Part shown: positions 4,655 to 32,168 of the stretch, piece after piece
How positions within the stretch are numbered: the stretch's first letter is position 1
How the letters are laid out: each line of letters begins with the position of its first letter
Origin: an uncultured Propionivibrio sp.
Lineage (GTDB): Bacteria > Pseudomonadota > Gammaproteobacteria > Burkholderiales > Rhodocyclaceae
Reading direction: 5' to 3'
Assembly (NCBI GenBank): GCA_964575415.1
Contig: CAZNQL010000017.1
Span: forward strand, 127-64,126
Length of the DNA stretch: 64,000 nucleotides
Notes under the pieces: model-generated
What the model was told of the DNA's origin: nothing
Seen by the model: only the letters and a program-made list of their open reading frames with translations
Database searches by the model: none
Translations under genes and position numbers: made by a program

Positions 4655-4671
4655 CTGGCACCGGAATTGCT
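4655..4671 (+). promoter_or_regulatory. sigma54 (-24/-12) promoter of nifVWZM
   Basis: CTGGCAC-cggaa-TTGCT matches the consensus TGGCAC-N5-TTGCW. Confidence 0.88.
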
Positions 4672-4692
4672 CACATGAGGTCAGGAGGCCTT

Positions 4693-6201
4693 ATGTCACA
4701 AGCCGGACAGTCATTCATCGTCATCAACGATACGACGCTACGCGACGGCGAGCAATCGGCCGGGGTCGCTTTCACCCTCGACGAAAAGCTGGCCATCGCA
4801 CGCCATCTTGCCGCGCTGGGCGTGCCCGAACTCGAAGTCGGCATTCCGGCGATGGGCGAGGCCGAGCGCGAGAGCATCCGCGCCGTGGCCGCTCTGGGAC
4901 TGTCGTCGCGCCTGATGGTGTGGAGCCGCATGCACGAGAGCGACATCGCCGCCTGCTGCGGACTGGGGGCGCACCTGATCGACATTTCTGTGCCTTCGTC
5001 GGATCAACACCTCGCCCACAAGTTGCGCCGTGACCGCGCCTGGTTGCTGTCGCGCATCGGCTACCACATTTCGCTTGCCCTCGACGCCGGCTTCGAAGTC
5101 TGCATCGGCGCCGAGGATGCCTCGCGCGCCGATCCGGATTTCCTTGCACAAATCGCCGAAGCGGCACAGCGTGCCGGGGCGCGGCGGATTCGCTTCGCCG
5201 ATACGCTCGGCGTGCTCGATCCGTTCGCCGTCGCCGAGCGCATCGCGCGTCTGCGTGCGACAACCGACCTCGAAATCGAAATGCACGCCCACGACGACCT
5301 CGGTCTGGCGACGGCCAACACGCTGGCGGCGGTGCGTGCTGGCGCCACGCATGTCAATACCACGGTCAACGGCCTCGGCGAGCGTGCCGGCAACGCCGCG
5401 CTCGAAGAAGTCGTGCATGGATTGCACCAGTGCTACGGCATCGAAACCGGCGTCGATCTGCGCCAGTTCCCGGAAGTGTCGGCGCTGGTCGCGCAGGCGT
5501 CTGGACGGCCGGTGGCCTGGCAGAAGAGCCTCGTCGGTGAGGGGGTGTTCACGCACGAAGCCGGCATCCATGTCGACGGCCTCCTGAAACATCCCGACAA
5601 CTATCAGGGTTTCGACCCGCGCCTCGTCGGCCGCGACCACCGCGTCGTCCTCGGCAAGCATTCGGGCAAAGGCGGTGTGCAGGCCGTGTTTTCGATGCTC
5701 GGCAAGACGGTCGGCGATGAAGAGGCAGAAACGCTGGTCGGCGAAATTCGCGACTTCGTCAATCGTTGCAAGCGACCGTCGTCGCCGGAAGAGTTGTTGT
5801 TCATGCTGGCGGAGCAGCAATCGAAGGCCCGCGGCCAATTGTCCCCACTGATTTCAACCGAGAAGGAATGCACCATGAGCCTCGATGCCACCGACTTTGA
5901 GCAGGAAGTTGCCGAACTGGAATCCGCCGAGGATTTTCTCGAATATTTCAACATCGAATACGACCCAGCGGTCGTCCAGGTCAACCGGCTGCATATCCTG
6001 CAGCGTTTCCACGACTACCTGGCCCGGCGCGCTGAAACGCAGACGCTGACCTACGCCGAATACCGGACAAGCCTCGGCATGGCTTATGAGGATTTCGTCC
6101 GTTCCGATGCGGTGACCGAGAAAGTGTTCAAGGTCTTCAAACGGGCGTCGGGCATCGCAACCGTTCCGCTGTCCGCCATCGGCCGCGCGACGAGGCACTG
6201 A
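4693..6201 (+). CDS. nifV: Homocitrate synthase NifV, reading in frame into NifW
   Basis: [47 protein letters not shown]; RBS AGGAGG before ATG 4693; no stop before nifW. Confidence 0.92.
5875..6201 (+). CDS. nifW: Nitrogenase-stabilising protein NifW (own RBS and ATG inside the nifV frame)
   Basis: [35 protein letters not shown]...EKVFKVF; AGAAGGA at 5861-5867. Confidence 0.9.
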
Positions 6202-6665
6202 TGCAAACGCAATTCGATCTCGGCGATTCGGTGCGTGTCGTGCGCAATGTGCGCAACGACGGCACCTATCCCGGCGCGGCCATGGGCGATCTCCTGGTGC
6301 GTCTCGGCAGCGTCGGCACCGTTGTCGATATCGGCACCTTCCTCATGGATCAGATCATCTATACCGTGCACTTTCTCGATGACGACAAGATGGTCGGTTG
6401 CCGCGAGGAAGAAGTGATCGGCGCCGACGATCCCTGGGTGCCCAGCCTGTTCGAATCGCGCGAAAAAGTACGCGCGGGCAAGTTGCTCAAGCTCAGCGAG
6501 GATGCGCAAATACCGATCGGCGCCATCGGCGAAGTCCTGAAAGTCCTGCGCGACGAGGCCTCGGCTACCGTTCTTTACCATATGCATTTCGACTGCCTGC
6601 CGGGCCGCACGCTGGCCGTGCCCGAGTCGGCGCTTTCACCCCTGAGGGACGACCGTGCAGACTGA
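6201..6665 (+). CDS. nifZ: NifZ
   Basis: GDSVRVVRNVRNDGTYPG...GTFLMDQIIYTVHF...VGCREEE. Confidence 0.92.
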   Translation: MQTQFDLGDSVRVVRNVRNDGTYPGAAMGDLLVRLGSVGTVVDIGTFLMDQIIYTVHFLDDDKMVGCREEEVIGADDPWVPSLFESREKVRAGKLLKLSEDAQIPIGAIGEVLKVLRDEASATVLYHMHFDCLPGRTLAVPESALSPLRDDRAD

Positions 6666-8398: not shown

Positions 8399-8418
8399 AT
8401 GGCTGGAATTGGCCTATT
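8399..8418. repeat. 20-bp motif shared with the recombinase island
   Basis: ATGGCTGGAATTGGCCTATT is 19/20 identical to the reverse complement of 29333-29352. Confidence 0.7.
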
Positions 8419-25775: not shown

Positions 25776-26531
25776 TCAGATTATCAACCGATTCCGGATC
25801 AAGGTTCCCGCATTCTGCAGCCTTGGAATGGTCGAGGCCAGATTGAGCCCGGTTTCCTGGAATAAGCGTTCGGTCCGGGCGATCAATTCCTCGAGCGAGA
25901 CGTCAACCGGTTCACCGCCGTTGGCGAAGGCGATGCGGTTGCCGCTATCCACCGACGGAAAGACCAGCGCGCGGTCATCAAAGGCCGCGGCGATGCGTTC
26001 CGAGCTGGCCTCGAAGCCCGCCGAGCGGCCGAGCAGATTGATCGACAGCAGTCCCTCGTCGCTCAGGCGGGAGCGGCAGGCCTGGTAGAAGGGCAAGGTG
26101 TCGAGCACGCCGGCGCGCCCTTCCTTGTCGAAACCATCGACGAGGATGTAATCGTAGGATTTTCCGTCCTTGAGCATGTATTCCGCGCCGTCGCCGATGA
26201 CGATTCGCAACCGGCGCGGGTCGTCCGGCAGCTTGAAGTGGAGCAGGGCGACGGTCTCGACCTTGGGGTCGATTTCGACGACGGTGATCCGGGTGTCGGG
26301 AAACTTGTGATAAATGAATTTCGCCAGCGAGCCGGCACCGAGGCCGATGAGCAGAGCTTCGCGCGGCCAGGGCGGATCGCGCAGCAGCAGGCCGGCCATC
26401 ATTTCGCGGGTATAGGCCAGTTCCAGATCGACCGGGCGCTGGATGCGCATCGCGCCCTGGATCCAGTCGCGGCTGAAGTGCAGATAACGGACTCCGGATT
26501 TCTCACTGATGTCGATGGCGTTGTCGGACAT
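25776..26531 (-). CDS. Spermidine synthase-like SAM methyltransferase
   Basis: IQGAMRI, LAYTREM, IGLGAGSL, VEIDP, DYILVDGF. Confidence 0.85.
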   Translation of the reverse strand: MSDNAIDISEKSGVRYLHFSRDWIQGAMRIQRPVDLELAYTREMMAGLLLRDPPWPREALLIGLGAGSLAKFIYHKFPDTRITVVEIDPKVETVALLHFKLPDDPRRLRIVIGDGAEYMLKDGKSYDYILVDGFDKEGRAGVLDTLPFYQACRSRLSDEGLLSINLLGRSAGFEASSERIAAAFDDRALVFPSVDSGNRIAFANGGEPVDVSLEELIARTERLFQETGLNLASTIPRLQNAGTLIRNRLII

Positions 26532-26637
26532 GCGGCAGGGCTGGCTTCGAATAGAGATAAAGACGAATCTTAACGCCTGCGCGCGCCATCCGGAATACTT
26601 GCGCGGCATGTCGTTGTTTCCGGTGTATCCTGCGCGG

Positions 26638-27422
26638 ATGACGAAAACGACGCCCACGACAACTTCTGCCACTCCCTTTGCCAGCCTGACGCCCGATTCC
26701 ATGCTCGATGCCCTGGAGAGCATCGGACTGACTCCCGATGGCCGTCTGCTTGCGCTCAACAGTTACGAGAACCGCGTTTATCAGGTGTTCATGGACGACG
26801 GCCGGCCGCTGATCGTCAAGTTCTACCGCGCCGGGCGCTGGTCGGACGCGGCGATCCTCGAAGAGCATGCGTTTACGACCGAGCTTGCCGAGCGGGAATT
26901 GCCGGTCGTCGCGCCACGGCCGATCAACGGGCAGACCCTGCATCATTTTGGCGACTTGCGTTTCGCCGTTTTCCCCCGGCAGGGCGGGCGCCCGAATTCG
27001 ACCGCGCCAGCAGCTTCGCCACGCTACGCCTGCATGGCGATTGCCACGCCGGCAACGTCCTCTGGCAGGAGGAGAGTGGCCCCTGCTTCGTCGACTTCGA
27101 CGATGCGCGCATGGGGCCGGCGGTGCAGGACCTGTGGATGCTGCTCTCCGGCGAACGTGCGGATCAGGTTCGCCAGTTGGCCGACGTACTCGCCGGCTAC
27201 GAGGACTTTTTCGAGTTCGACGCACGCGAACTGCATCTCGTCGAAGCCTTGCGCACGCTGCGCCTGATTCACTACGCCGGCTGGCTGGCGCGGCGCTGGG
27301 ACGATCCGGCGTTCCCCGCCGCTTTCCCCTGGTTCAACACCCAGCGCTATTGGCAGGACCGCATCCTCGAATTGCGTGAACAGATCGCCCTGATGGACGA
27401 ACCGCCGCTGTGGGTGGGGTGA
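26638..27422 (+). pseudogene. srkA: Ser/Thr kinase SrkA/RdoA (YihE) with a frameshift and an internal deletion
   Basis: LNSYENRVY, KFYR.GRWS, EEH in frame 1; LRLHGDCH.GNVL, DFDD, PAVQDLWM, RWDDPAFP in another frame; switch near 26990; central segment missing. Confidence 0.85.
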
Positions 27423-27460
27423 ACGGGCTGGATTTCGGCCAAAGCTGCCGGTAGCCTTCC

Positions 27461-27501
27461 CAATGAAAGATGGCCGGTTCTGATACCAGACCGGCCATTT
27501 G
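27461..27501. repeat. Left end site (palindrome ATGGCCGGT..ACCGGCCAT)
   Basis: Reverse complement matches 31036-31076 at 33/41; 7 of the 8 mismatches form the central spacer. Confidence 0.85.
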
Positions 27502-27882
27502 CTTTGTAAGAGAGGTTTCAATCAAGCTACGTCGACTTCTGACCCCCAAGAGCCTTCATCGTCTTGATGGCTGTGCGGCAAGTGTCCCGCATTCAGCATC
27601 CCTTGCCATTCATATGGCGCCACATTGCGGAGTTGATTGCACGACTTTCCATGTGCAGAACTAATCATTCAATCCCCATTCTTGCTGTGGGTCAAGACTA
27701 GACATTTTCGGCAGGAGGAGTAGTCTATGACCGTGCCTGATGCGTAGTAGATCGGGCCACCCAGTAACAACGCGACTGGAGGCAAGATGGTCGAATGTCC
27801 GCCGCAGTGCGTGATGATTGCGTAGTACCCAAACGGCGAATGCCGAATACCTTGGTCAATCGCTACGAGGTCAAGGATTTAC

Positions 27883-27952
27883 GAAGCCCATGTCCGACCG
27901 GCATGGGCTTCACGCATTATGCGTCCCCGAATTGAAGCGGAACGTCCGCTTC
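27883..27952. repeat. Two perfect palindromes in the ORF-free left arm of the island
   Basis: GAAGCCCATG-N9-CATGGGCTTC (27883-27911) and GAAGCGGA-ACG-TCCGCTTC (27934-27952). Confidence 0.7.
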
Positions 27953-28124
27953 ACAAGTCAGCAAACTCACACACACGACCCTGATCCGACCTTCAGAGTT
28001 TGTAAAAGCGGACAATCAACTCTGAAAAATGATCGAAAAACCGCGTAACATGAGGAAGGCATGCGCTATGACTGCCGACATCGACCCTAGCACCACCAAC
28101 TCACTCCTTTAAACGAATACATCA

Positions 28125-28445
28125 ATGAAAAAGCAACTATTTAACTACGCACTAATTTGCATATTGCTTACGTTTGCCTCGGTGTCAAAAGCAGAAGACA
28201 TCGACTACCCCCCGGCAATTCAGAGGCTCAAAGATTATAATGGCATGTCGATTATAAAAAAATTTCCTGCGGTTAGTGGACTAACTGGATGGGTTGTCAA
28301 AGATAACGAAACAAACAAGTATGCCATTATGTATTTCACACAGGACGGTCAAAGTATAGTCGCAGGCATGCTTGTCGACATTAAAGGCAATAATTTAACG
28401 AAAACATACGCGGATAAATATTTAACAAAACTACGGAGTGAATGA
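28125..28445 (+). CDS. Secreted protein resembling a stand-alone DsbG N-terminal dimerisation domain
   Basis: Signal peptide to SKA/ED; PAIQRL..GMSIIKKF.A.SGLTGW..IMYFTQDG..I.AG.L.D.KGNNLT; no CXXC. Confidence 0.65.
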   Translation: MKKQLFNYALICILLTFASVSKAEDIDYPPAIQRLKDYNGMSIIKKFPAVSGLTGWVVKDNETNKYAIMYFTQDGQSIVAGMLVDIKGNNLTKTYADKYLTKLRSE

Positions 28446-28639
28446 CTGTGCCCTGATGGACAAAGCACAGCTACACTCCGATAGTTTTTAGTTTGCTCAG
28501 GACAATGTCTGCTTTTTTTTTGGGCGAGTAAGCAAGTGTCCGCTCGTGGCCGATTGTACGCATTCGGCATCCGAAGGGAAAGCTGCCTTTGCACTTTAGG
28601 TGAAAAATCAGACTCCGATTAACAAAGAAGGAGTCTGTC

Positions 28640-29254
28640 ATGGAATCAAATAGATACCGCGAACCCTGGAATAAAAGAAAGTTGGTCGGTCAGAAGCCCC
28701 CGTTAAAGCCAAAAGACATCTGGGCGATCCGGATCAATCTGCAAAACACAGGCCAGATAAGAGGCCTAGCCATGTTCAATCTGGCGATTGACAGCAAGCT
28801 TCGTGGTTGTGACCTCGTCAGTCTCCGCGTTCGTGACATAACCCACGGTAACCAAGTCTTGACCCGTGCGATGGTCGTCCAAAGGAAAACACAGCGGCCT
28901 GTTCAGTTTGAGCTGACCGAACCGACACGGGCATCGGTTACAGCGTGGATCGAAAAAGCCAAGCTGAGGCAGGATCAATACCTTTTCCCCTGCCGCCTCT
29001 CAAAATCACCGCACGTCTCTACAAGGCAATATGCACGAATAGTCCATCAGTGGGTTGCTGCTGCGGGTCTTGATCCCAGTGTTTATGGTACGCACACAAT
29101 GGGCCGAACCAAGGCCACGTTAATCTATAAGCGTACTAAGAACCTGAGGGCAGTACAGATTCTGCTGGGGCACACAAAGCTTGAGAGCACCGTTCGATAC
29201 CTTGGAATCGAGGTTGATGACGCGCTTGAAATCTCTGAACAAACTGAGATTTAG
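28640..29254 (+). CDS. Minimal (204 aa) tyrosine recombinase, catalytic domain only
   Basis: AIDSKLRGCDL (R), QRKT (K), HTMGR (HxxR altered to G), LLGH, TVRYL (Y). Confidence 0.92.
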   Translation: MESNRYREPWNKRKLVGQKPPLKPKDIWAIRINLQNTGQIRGLAMFNLAIDSKLRGCDLVSLRVRDITHGNQVLTRAMVVQRKTQRPVQFELTEPTRASVTAWIEKAKLRQDQYLFPCRLSKSPHVSTRQYARIVHQWVAAAGLDPSVYGTHTMGRTKATLIYKRTKNLRAVQILLGHTKLESTVRYLGIEVDDALEISEQTEI

Positions 29255-29465
29255 CGTCCTGAATCACGGTCGCGCGCAGGATACGACATTTTCTTCGTGC
29301 GACCGCTTTCCGGCAAGATTCCAAATGCGTACAATCGGCCAATTCCAGCCATTCAGAATATTTCTCGTAAGCGGACGTCAGCCTCCTGTACGCATTATTA
29401 ACAATTACTTGACAATTCTGCTTCCGATCAACTGTAGGTAATTATTATTCACAAAGCGAGGGTTT

Positions 29466-29798
29466 ATGATTGAACAACAAGAAATGAAGCGACTCACCAC
29501 TGGCAACATCTTCAAATTGCTTCTGCTTGGAACTTCTTGCTCAATTATTCCCTTTTCTCTGGTAATGGGCATTCTCAGCATTTTTGGGGCATCAACAGTT
29601 ACATGGAATGATCAGCCTTTAACTGGAGTTACAGGCCTAATCGCGTCCCCCTTTATCGGGGCGTTTATTGCCTTGCTGCTTTCTGGAATATTTGGCCTCT
29701 TTATCGCATTAGGGCTATGGTTCTACTCCCGCTTCAAACCTCTAACCGTTCAATATTGGTGTGTTGATTCTCAAGCTGAGAGCAAGGTCACCACCTAA
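29466..29798 (+). CDS. Small membrane protein, cassette-like ORF
   Basis: Two to three hydrophobic helices; stop TAA lies within ACCTAAC. Confidence 0.7.
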   Translation: MIEQQEMKRLTTGNIFKLLLLGTSCSIIPFSLVMGILSIFGASTVTWNDQPLTGVTGLIASPFIGAFIALLLSGIFGLFIALGLWFYSRFKPLTVQYWCVDSQAESKVTT

Positions 29799-29874
29799 CA
29801 TGGCGGTTAAGGACGCTCTCTCTGGTCGCCGGGACTCGCTGCAAGTGGAGCGTCCCTCACCTTGACCGTTGAAG
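29793..29874 (+). other. Integron attC-like recombination site
   Basis: R'' ACCTAAC ... R' GTTGAAG; internal stem GGACGCTC/GAGCGTCC and CGGTTAA/TTGACCG; 82 bp. Confidence 0.6.
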
Positions 29875-30075
29875 GTCCGTTTTACTCACTGGTGACAGAC
29901 TGCCTTTGGTCGAAAGTATGCATTGACGGTATTTGGAAGCCGCCGTTAGACTGATGGAATACAGCCCAAAGCTGAAACCGGTCAGAAGCAGCCATATCGC
30001 CAATTCTTCTTAAGCTGCCATTTCAACGTTATTTAGTTCATCCATAAACGCCAAAAAGGATGTGTAAGCTCGGCC

Positions 30076-30888
30076 ATGAAAAAAACTCTCCTTACTTTGC
30101 TTGCCTTACTTCCTCTTACCTTCGTAGCCAAAGAAGCAACCTCAGGAACAATGCCACCTGAATGGTGTGAGGAAAAATGGCAAGCCGAGACGTCTGCGCT
30201 TTACCCTGAGACGGGACAGTCTGTAAATGTTGCTGAGACGTGGCTGAAATACAAAGACCAGTGCGAAGGAACTGTTACGTTCGAGAGCAGGCTTGCAATT
30301 GCATATGCAATGAATGGTCAATTCGATAACGCAAGGAATGTTTCCCAGTCAATAACAGCCAAGGATAGCAAGTATGAATACTTGGCAACCTTTTCAGGTA
30401 TAGCTATCGACTACTTTGGGATTATGCACAAAGACCGAATTTCTGAATTTGATGTAAGAACCATAAAAGACAAGTTGGTTGCCTATGTCGGCAAATATCC
30501 AGATTTTCCTGACGCAAATGGACTGCTTGGCGGGCTGTATTCTATGTTGGGCGAACATCAAGCAGCTATTGCATCTTTAGAGCGCGCTAAAGATACAAAA
30601 ATGGACGCTAGTGGCGTTTATAGAAATTTAACAATCAGTCTAACTGAGGTTGGTAGATACCAAGAAGCCATAAATGCAGGAAATACTGCTTATCGTTTGA
30701 AGAAAGCTGTTACTTCTGATCAGTATTTTGCTTATGCAATAGCGAAAGCGGATGCTGGCATAGGGGACTTCAAGTCTGCCATAACTGCATTGCAAGTAAT
30801 TGCTCATAAGAAGCCAGAAGTACGGTCTGATCCGGAATTTAAGGCAACAGTTGATTTTGTGAAAAATAAACACAATACCGCCAAATAA
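30076..30888 (+). CDS. Exported TPR-like helical-repeat protein
   Basis: Signal peptide MKKTLLTLLALLP; TPR-like segments YPDFPDA..LLG.LY...G....AI..LERA and Y.NL...L...GRYQEAI. Confidence 0.7.
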   Translation: MKKTLLTLLALLPLTFVAKEATSGTMPPEWCEEKWQAETSALYPETGQSVNVAETWLKYKDQCEGTVTFESRLAIAYAMNGQFDNARNVSQSITAKDSKYEYLATFSGIAIDYFGIMHKDRISEFDVRTIKDKLVAYVGKYPDFPDANGLLGGLYSMLGEHQAAIASLERAKDTKMDASGVYRNLTISLTEVGRYQEAINAGNTAYRLKKAVTSDQYFAYAIAKADAGIGDFKSAITALQVIAHKKPEVRSDPEFKATVDFVKNKHNTAK

Positions 30889-31035
30889 AAATTGAATATG
30901 GTCGGGGAAAGCGGTCCGAGAATGCGAAGGGAAACGTTGGAGATGGACGTCTGCTTTTCTGCTAGCTGACTGACCGAAATGGGTCGATAGCCGAAGTAGC
31001 CAGCCAAAGAAGCTGACTTTTCACCGTTTAAAGTT

Positions 31036-31076
31036 CAAATGGCCGGTCTATATGTCGAACCGGCCATTTTTCATTG
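31036..31076. repeat. Right end site, inverted relative to 27461-27501
   Basis: CAAATGGCCGGTCT-atatgtc-GAACCGGCCATTTTTCATTG. Confidence 0.85.
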
Positions 31077-31256
31077 ATGACGTATCTGGCCGCAAAGGCC
31101 GAGAACCGGACGCAAACGCGCCGTTAGCGTCTCCAAATACCTTGAAGCGCATTCTTTTCTGGGATGAAAAGCAAAAAGCTAAGCTCAGATAGGCTGGCTT
31201 TGACGTGGAAGCATACCCTTGCCAAACGGCAAAGTGATGGTTGCAGGAATAGGCGC

Positions 31257-32168
31257 CTACGGGTAAGCGTGCGATTCGAAGCGGAAGAGCGCCGGTTCGT
31301 CGGTGTCGATGATGACCTTGATCCATCCCATCCACGGGTAGCCGAAGGTTTCGAGGCGGGTGAAGTTGGCGATCGGGCCTTGGCCGTCGGGGCGGCGCAG
31401 AGGATGGTCGATGCGGTGCCAGTGCGTGTCGCCATGCACGAGCAGCACCTGGCCGGGGAAGTCGAGCGTTTCCTGGCGCAGGGTTTCGAGCAGGTCGCGG
31501 AATCCGTTCTTGGCGAGGCCGGCGGCGAACAGCTTGAAGATAGGGTCGGCCTGCATGACGACGACGATGCCGGGCGCATGCTCTCGTCGCGCCAGCGCGA
31601 AGCCCTGCCGCAGCCAGTCGAGGATCGCCGGGTTGCGCGCCGCAAACTCCGGGCTGGGTTGTTTTCGGATGCCGTGATTGTTGTTCGGGCCGGGGACGTT
31701 GATCGTCAGGAAACGTACCGGTCCGAGCCGCCAGCGCAGGTTTTCCGGAAAGTCAGCGGACTGGCGTTCGACGGCGATTTTCCGTTGCCCCAGAGACTGC
31801 GGCTCGGCGAAGAAGATTTCCCGCAGCCGGTTCAGGCGTTCGACCGGGTCGTAATCACCGGCGACGAGTACCTTGCAGTCCGTCCATTCGTTGTCGCCGG
31901 GCGTGTACAGGAAAGGCACGCGCGACGAATCGAAGAGGGCCTTGCGGTCGAGCAGAATTTCGTCGCTGCATTTCGCCGAGCTGCGCTTGATGTCGCCGGC
32001 ATGGACGATGAATTCCGGCTGCTCATTCTCGATCAGCCTGAGCAGGGACGGCATTTCCCGGCGTTCGTAGTCGCTGTAGGGAACGTCGCCGATGACGGCG
32101 AACTTCCAGGTCTCGGCCTGCGCCGTGGCGGCCAGCAGCAGGCAGCACGCGGCGAGCAGCGTTTTCAT
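31257..32168 (-). CDS. Exported calcineurin-like metallophosphoesterase
   Basis: GDVPY, HAGDIK, PGDNEWTDC, HGDTH; signal peptide. Confidence 0.88.
   Translation of the reverse strand: MKTLLAACCLLLAATAQAETWKFAVIGDVPYSDYERREMPSLLRLIENEQPEFIVHAGDIKRSSAKCSDEILLDRKALFDSSRVPFLYTPGDNEWTDCKVLVAGDYDPVERLNRLREIFFAEPQSLGQRKIAVERQSADFPENLRWRLGPVRFLTINVPGPNNNHGIRKQPSPEFAARNPAILDWLRQGFALARREHAPGIVVVMQADPIFKLFAAGLAKNGFRDLLETLRQETLDFPGQVLLVHGDTHWHRIDHPLRRPDGQGPIANFTRLETFGYPWMGWIKVIIDTDEPALFRFESHAYP

Follow-up and report, generated by a model that had tools for sequence, protein, structure and literature searches.

A short gene that ends in what looks like the attC site of an integron cassette, and that lies behind a tyrosine recombinase other than an integron integrase, raises the question of whether the cassette is genuine and, if so, which recombinase placed it there. 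The gene is found in a 64-kb stretch of DNA from an uncultured Propionivibrio sp. (positions 127-64,126 of the forward strand of contig CAZNQL010000017.1, assembly GCA_964575415.1), referred to here as the window, for which a sequence-only reading had proposed that an island with a non-IntI recombinase had captured true integron cassettes and thus linked two separate recombination systems. In known integrons, an attC site acts through its bottom strand, which forms a hairpin that displays R and L boxes as well as extrahelical bases. The hairpin is bound by the integrase IntI, which cuts between the G and the TT of the R' box, whereby the cassette is excised or inserted.

Results

Layout of the low-GC block

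The gene lies in a block of 3.7 kb, which on the GC profile has a GC content of 43-48% against about 60% in the surrounding DNA. An APH/SrkA-like kinase gene flanks the block on one side and a phosphoesterase-mutS pair on the other, and by Pfam and NCBIfam searches the block holds four genes, which are an ORF comprising only a DsbG N-terminal domain, a 204-aa tyrosine recombinase, the 110-aa ORF of interest and a TPR protein. Apart from the cassette and its left margin, the features of the block are the following.

27430-27480: left terminal inverted repeat of the block, 51 nt, imperfect (repeat search, GC profile); overlaps a hairpin ATGGCCGG..CCGGCCAT at 27470-27500
27463-27981 (+): non-coding end module of 0.5 kb, also present in a second island of the same genome (C15)
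28125-28445 (+): DsbG/DsbC-type ORF, 106 aa, N-terminal dimerisation domain only (Pfam, NCBIfam)
28535-29357 (+): tyrosine-recombinase module of about 0.8 kb, with the gene at 28640-29254 (204 aa) and inverted repeats at 28547-28583 and 29305-29341
30021-30033 (+): motif ATTTCAACGTTAT, resembling the right end of an attC
30076-30888 (+): TPR-repeat protein, 270 aa (Pfam TPR families)
31057-31107: right terminal inverted repeat of the block, 51 nt (repeat search); overlaps a hairpin at 31039-31069, also ATGGCCGG..CCGGCCAT

The repeat and hairpin at either end resemble the termini of an element inserted between convergent core genes, or a palindromic target that was duplicated there. The two 51-nt repeats are 71% complementary to each other. 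The segment 31037-31103 also matches an island end on contig C15 of the same genome, and the end module 27463-27981 shares 86.5% identity over 534 nt with G000:C15:63645-64173 (L144 7646-8174) in inverted orientation, where the copy comes directly after an attC at L144 7548-7606; related islands thus seem to be the vehicles of the genome's orphan cassettes. A scan of 27500-31500 against Rfam, which covered the end module from 27500 on, returned nothing, attC families included, and the end module also has no plasmid match and no convincing ORF. When an empty site was sought in relatives, the mutS-phosphoesterase pair was found to be conserved and to lack attCs, the other flank differed, and no clean pre-insertion site was seen. 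The APH/SrkA-like kinase gene at 26509-27422 appears to be split over two frames (26509-27267 and 27111-27422), which may reflect a frameshift or an assembly error.

Identification of the attC site

The ORF at 29466-29798 stops inside the motif ACCTAAC, and the palindrome that follows ends in GTTGAAG and has an inner stem of GGACGCTC (29811-29818) with GAGCGTCC (29848-29855), as the sequence-only reading had described. Covariance models and an alignment to attCs of arrays divide the site as follows.

29790-29876 (+, top strand): attC site (family and general covariance models; alignment to array attCs)
29793-29799: R'' box ACCTAAC, 7/7 against RYYYAAC, holding the stop codon TAA (29796-29798) of the ORF
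29800-29804: 5' spacer ATGGC
29805-29812: L'' box GGTTAAGG
29813-29854: variable stem region
29855-29861: L' box CCTCACC
29862-29867: 3' spacer TTGACC
29868-29874: R' box GTTGAAG, 6/7 against GTTRRRY

The pair of boxes that marks an attC (RYYYAAC and GTTRRRY on the coding strand, separated by 50-150 nt and directly behind an ORF) is thus present at 29793-29874, and R' variants such as GTTGAAC and GTTGAGG are present in real arrays. Inside this pair, GGT[T]AAGG of the L'' box pairs with CCTCACC of the L' box around an extrahelical base, with the spacers ATGGC and TTGACC left unpaired.

The site was scored with three covariance models, all trained on attCs of a few arrays and different from the model of IntegronFinder. 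R1 is a general model of ten attCs, none from the family of the window site; R2 is a family model of 13 members; and R3 is a general model of 150 of the 291 attCs that R1 found in 83 loci obtained by a pattern scan. The family was recognized from the attCs at L007 7216-7297 and L008 950-1037, which align with the window site over the full length with a mean column identity of 70%, and follows the pattern ..CTAACATKGCGSTCAAS..CGCTCCCTTCGGTCGCTGGGAC..CCTTACC..ACGTTRRRY. A scan with its conserved 5'-half pattern detects members of the family in over 60 named genomes, mostly of Rhodocyclales, Nitrosomonadales, Burkholderiales and Methylococcales, and many of the attC arrays in the 83 loci from the pattern scan adjoin full-length IntI genes. 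The L box of the family has three pairs with compensatory changes, and its covariation of 0.244, compared with 0.150 after shuffling, is reached by 0/500 shuffles and collapses once the partners are slid.

With R2, the segment 29790-29876 scores 56.6 bits (E 1.3e-13) and is the sole real match in the 64-kb window. The general models see the site less clearly. R1, which recovers held-out members of the family at 24-35 bits, has the window site as its sole match in the block with filters off, at 13.9 bits (E 0.026 in 4.5 kb), and scores it 11.1 bits (E 3.6 in 115 kb) in a larger search; the score with R3 is 19.8 bits (E 4.7e-4 in 4 kb), again as the sole match in the block, with E 0.087 in a search of 754 kb. 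The palindrome is therefore significant with the family model and marginal with the general models in large searches, which suggests that a generic detector might miss it; under R1, members of the family in arrays score 24-40 bits, compared with 11-14 bits for the window site. Judged by the full-length alignment and the R2 score, 29790-29876 is a true integron attC of a widespread family, common in cassette arrays of betaproteobacterial type.

No further attC was found in the block with R1 and R3, filters off, neither after the TPR gene nor at 30020-30032, where the right end of a second site had been proposed. The motif ATTTCAACGTTAT is indeed present, one base off at 30021-30033, but it is not part of an attC that R1 or R3 detects. 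The same two models find no attC associated with the ORF at 28125-28445 and none recognisable before or after the TPR gene at 30076-30888, 29877-31300 being without a match.

Divergence of the site

Several features of the window site depart from those of its family. In the family-invariant column 19, which holds the bulged extrahelical base, the window site has a T instead of a C, the pair 20-80 is A.C in the window site and A-T in 13/13 family members, and its variable region has kept only an eroded version of the long GC stem. Either strand of the palindrome folds at -11 to -14.6 kcal/mol, with z-scores of -0.1 to -0.7 against shuffled sequences, while canonical family members fold at -17 to -20 kcal/mol with z-scores of -0.9 to -2.1. 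Folding of the bottom strand, which had been suggested as a check, thus gives no stability above that of shuffles. As the fold is at the shuffle level, thermodynamics alone gives no support for an attC, and folding alone would wrongly dismiss the site. Compared with its relatives, the attC of the window is real but diverged and somewhat decayed, with a mismatch in the L box, an altered extrahelical base and a weakened stem.

The 110-aa ORF and its homologues

The gene in front of the attC is listed here.

29466-29798 (+): cassette ORF, 110 aa, small membrane protein (ORF list), with the conserved motif FGASTVTWN.QPLTG..GLIASPFIG

The ORF belongs to no Pfam or NCBIfam family and has 25 homologues of 42-72% identity, mostly metagenomic. 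These form a conserved family of small membrane proteins; in their alignment the core is conserved, and the C-terminal tail varies and extends into the R'' box. It had been asked whether such homologues sit in integron arrays, and some of them do. The homologue P0002, 71% identical, constitutes one cassette (5975-6395) in an array of 12 attCs on L007, where an attI-like GTTAGGC is followed by twelve short ORFs on the same strand, each with a terminal attC (..AACGTTAGRY). This array adjoins an IntI remnant, two fragments of which match positions 1-61 and 82-181 of TIGR02249, their best NCBIfam model. Another homologue, P0010, sits in a decayed array on L008-L010, and the R'' box CACCTAAC of L013 and L008 is located at, or just past, the stop codon. 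By homology, then, the 110-aa ORF is a true gene cassette, with homologues that are cassettes as well.

In the acidobacterium Geothrix (CP126625; L011, 3448-8354), a homologue of the ORF lies downstream of CNNM, NTP-transferase and APH genes, and CNNM and APH genes are likewise found upstream of the ORF in the window. R1 found no attC in L011, and the resemblance in gene set was treated as a coincidence.

The left cassette boundary and an attI-like platform

In a linear cassette, the first bases should be those of the distal portion of the cassette's own R' box and hence complementary to R''. Upstream of the ORF, the following features were found (here and below, a slash within a motif marks the crossover).

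29432-29438 (+): left cassette boundary TG/T-AGGT, the complement of the cassette's own R'' box ACCTAAC (G/TTAGGT) minus one T, 33 nt ahead of the ATG
29367-29438 (+): attI-like platform remnant (pairwise alignment to L215 and L153; multiple alignment with L237, L153 and L215)

The same spacing of 33 nt to the ATG is seen in homologous cassettes, which begin with GTTAGCC in L007 and with GTTAGGT in L013. Upstream of the boundary, 29386-29438 is identical to L215 at 38/53 positions (72%), with a local score of 29 compared with 15.4 +/- 2.2 for shuffled sequences, which 0/1000 shuffles reach; the adjacent 29367-29385 matches L153 with a score that 20/1000 shuffles reach. The matched sequence is part of a conserved platform of about 190 nt that stands directly ahead of the first cassette in L215, L153, L237, L238 and L125 and ends in ..AATRACTG/TTRGG; several metagenome and MAG loci have it at the head of a cassette array. 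It reads AGACATTC..CATATGCGGAC..AATAATACGGACC..TCTAATRACTG/TTRGG, with a short hairpin approximately 10 nt ahead of the crossover. Its copies are located as follows.

L237 3234-3377: platform copy
L238 8228-8372: platform copy
L153 4655-4790 (minus): platform copy
L215 about 4666-4850 (minus): platform copy
L125 4650-4790: platform copy
L081 about 250-320: platform copy

In the seven platform loci sampled, no intact intI was found beside the platform. Five of the seven have the recombinase module, one an IS30-like end (L081) and one neither (L125), a distribution subject to ascertainment bias as five of the loci were chosen via the recombinase. The true integrons of genus relatives have an attI different from this platform, and a search for the platform in 400 genomes of the class gave weak, uninformative matches only. 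From a match of 53 nt at 72% to a platform never seen beside an intact intI, we infer that 29367-29438 would be an attI-type remnant, and the cassette of the window is probably the first cassette beside it.

Integron integrase and other orphan attCs

That the window contains no intI, as noted in the sequence-only reading, holds, and it can be extended to the genome assembly as a whole. No protein encoded on its 41 contigs exceeds the TIGR02249 cut-off of 265 bits, the best matches being XerC/D-like, and at a completeness of 94.7% an intI could lie in the missing part. A tblastn search of the block for IntI remnants matched only the catalytic region of the recombinase, and the cassette accordingly has no adjacent intI above the cut-off that would make it a complete integron. 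Among genus relatives, a full-length IntI is present in 13/31.

Elsewhere in the genome, further attCs without an integrase were found.

G000:C13:6941-8975 (L142): array of three attCs, with cassettes for a 374-aa protein, a DUF2726-like ORF and a 337-aa protein
G000:C22:32186-32264 (L143): single attC
G000:C15:63547-63605 (L144): single attC

In the C13 array, the R' box of the middle site has decayed to GTCACGA. The unrelated loci L145 (5742-5840) and L058 (6129-6245) keep only the first 41-43 codons of intI, beside attI and cassettes; the fragment abuts an acetyltransferase gene in L058 and the recombinase module in L145.

The recombinase module

The 204-aa recombinase has a Pfam Phage_integrase match and scores 24.7 bits against the IntI model TIGR02249 (cut-off 265), over residues 124-188 only, with higher scores for the XerA, XerC and XerD models. 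An IntI would be expected to match the model over its full length, N-terminal domain and IntI-specific insertion included; the match here covers far less, and the protein lacks the N-terminal domain. Its family is very large and tightly conserved: more than 8000 relatives were found, and the best 120 listed are 83-87% identical and nearly all 204 aa long. The module occurs on 346 plasmids and in thousands of contexts. Each arm of its inverted repeats contains an exact 17-mer, and between unrelated contexts DNA conservation covers the gene and both repeats (approximately 28535-29357) and stops there; the module is therefore self-contained.

AttCs are found near 4/80 metagenome copies and 1/10 genome copies of the module, or about 5% of the copies sampled. 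The module is found near the cassette-side core of the platform, in either orientation and with a gap of 178-358 nt between gene and core, in L237, L238, L153/L150, L215 and the window, and in each of these loci different cassettes with canonical attCs follow. In L145, it abuts an N-terminal IntI fragment (residues 11-43) plus a cassette. The recombinase is not an IntI and belongs to a separate mobile module, and its recurrence beside the platform in several independent loci is more than incidental adjacency alone would lead one to expect.

The notion that the inverted repeats of the module are the halves of a split attC was rejected, as the repeats accompany the module, and are conserved, also where no attC is present. 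Within a nine-attC array in L215 (1931-11115), the module is accompanied by an IS91-type element with a Y2 transposase and a 290-aa tyrosine recombinase of its own, and the same IS91-type pair adjoins the module in L150-L152. Solo module ends without the gene also occur, as window positions 8399-8418 are the reverse complement of 29333-29352 at 19/20, and the C15 island has a 34-nt copy of the left repeat at 88% identity (L144 5550-5583), likewise without the gene.

Discussion

Origin of the cassette

The locus is likely explained as a real cassette with a diverged attC, located at the decayed start of an integron that no longer has an IntI, with an unrelated recombinase module beside it. Under this explanation, 29433-29874 is one genuine integron cassette consisting of a promoterless gene for a 110-aa membrane protein and its attC; an IntI would have made the arrangement and then been lost, or would have acted in trans. 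The cassette would now be a fossil, with a drifted attC, no IntI in the genome and a remnant of an attI-like platform at its left, and an independent module of 0.8 kb sits where intI would be expected. We infer both the order of these events and the present immobility of the cassette, and the module would have arrived separately, presumably with no action on attC. The presence of IntI in 13/31 genus relatives and the other orphan attCs in the genome suggest that a lost or trans-acting IntI better explains the cassette than capture by the recombinase. The proposal that an island had captured true integron cassettes therefore stands as far as the attC and the cassette are concerned, given the homologues in L007 and L008, but one attC allows for one cassette and not several. 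The proposed link between two recombination systems is not supported, as nothing indicates that the recombinase captured the cassette: its IntI score is 24.7 bits against 265, the module is self-contained, and attCs are rarely near it.

A palindrome or terminator that carries RYYYAAC/GTTRRRY-like ends by chance would agree with a fold no better than shuffles and with an R' box of only 6/7, but it is hardly credible beside the 87-nt homology to an attC family (E 1e-13), the homologues of the ORF that are cassettes and the left boundary complementary to R'', and it appears effectively refuted by the family alignment and the R2 score. A more serious competitor would have a trans-acting IntI insert the circular cassette of the 110-aa ORF directly at an attG (G/WT) site, in which case neither an attI nor an integron was ever present here and the locus would be a single attC without an integron integrase (SALIN). 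Isolated cassettes are common, and IntI inserts at G/WT sites (10.1101/2022.09.11.507474). The single attC, the absence of IntI from the genome, the further single attCs on C15 and C22 and the junctions, which fit G/WT both on the left (..CAACTG/T(T)AGGT) and on the right (..CCG/TTGAAGG), are all in line with such an insertion. A random attG, however, would not be preceded by 50-70 nt resembling the platform of L215, L153, L237, L238 and L125, and we therefore regard direct insertion as unlikely.

The adjacency of module and platform can also be read as functional, which would be a form of the link between two systems proposed by the sequence-only reading, with the module homing beside attI/intI and displacing intI, or with its recombinase serving the arrays in place of IntI by recombining the platform core (..AATRACTG/TTRGG) with attC. 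That the module lies repeatedly near the same core, in either orientation and with different canonical cassettes after each, that in L145 it abuts an IntI fragment plus a cassette, that the platform heads live-looking arrays, and that no intI was seen beside it in seven loci would all agree with such a tie. Most copies of the module nevertheless have no attC nearby (4/80 metagenome and 1/10 genome loci do), its distance and orientation to the core vary, and the platform adjoins an IS30-like end in L081 and has no recombinase gene beside it in L125. The protein, moreover, has no N-terminal domain and fails the IntI model, and the recombinase had served to select five of the seven platform loci, which biases the association by ascertainment. 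A tie of this kind seems quite improbable. The decayed integron start with an unrelated module beside it is thus retained as the preferred explanation.

Relation to known systems

Single attCs and attC clusters without an integron integrase are known as SALIN and CALIN, respectively (Cury et al. 2016, PMC4889954; IntegronFinder 2.0, 10.1101/2022.02.28.482270; 10.1101/2022.09.11.507474). With one attC, the block lacks the at least two clustered sites of a CALIN and would count as a SALIN, and the three-site cluster is found on C13. Like these elements, the window has an attC behind an ORF, and intI is missing both from its vicinity and from the rest of the genome assembly; further orphan attCs, among them the C13 cluster, occur in the genome, and relatives have complete integrons. 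It differs in that an attI-like platform remnant seems to survive left of the cassette and that its attC is visibly degraded; the surviving platform suggests a decayed integron start and not a purely isolated insertion. The sedentary chromosomal arrays of Rhodocyclales, Nitrosomonadales and other groups (L007, L049, L081, L020 and L052) have attCs of the same family as the window, and L007 and L008 also share its cassette gene family. Such arrays, however, consist of many cassettes, often with an intact IntI, whereas the window has a single cassette and no IntI.

The IS1111-attC group and the group IIC-attC introns are insertion elements that land in integrons, and the module resembles them as a small mobile unit that recurs in or at the edge of arrays, inside the array in L215. 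It encodes, however, a 204-aa tyrosine recombinase and neither a DEDD transposase nor a reverse transcriptase, it leaves attC hairpins uninterrupted, and most of its copies are far from integrons. The invertases FimB and FimE are similar in their size of about 200 aa, in lacking an N-terminal core-binding domain and in having a gene that lies between inverted repeats. The match of the recombinase to the invertase model is weak, though (E 0.004, 16.7 bits against a cut-off of 222), and the repeats of the module enclose its own recombinase gene and move together with that gene.

The locus is therefore a known kind of object, a SALIN or decayed integron, and an ordinary integron fossil. As one more orphan cassette, from a lineage with chromosomal integrons among its relatives, it is of limited value in itself, and it corrects the idea of a non-IntI recombinase capturing integron cassettes. 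It also illustrates how close a generic attC search can come to overlooking degraded sites which family-level homology identifies with certainty. If it were true that the module targets platforms or replaces IntI, cassette arrays without intI would need a different interpretation.
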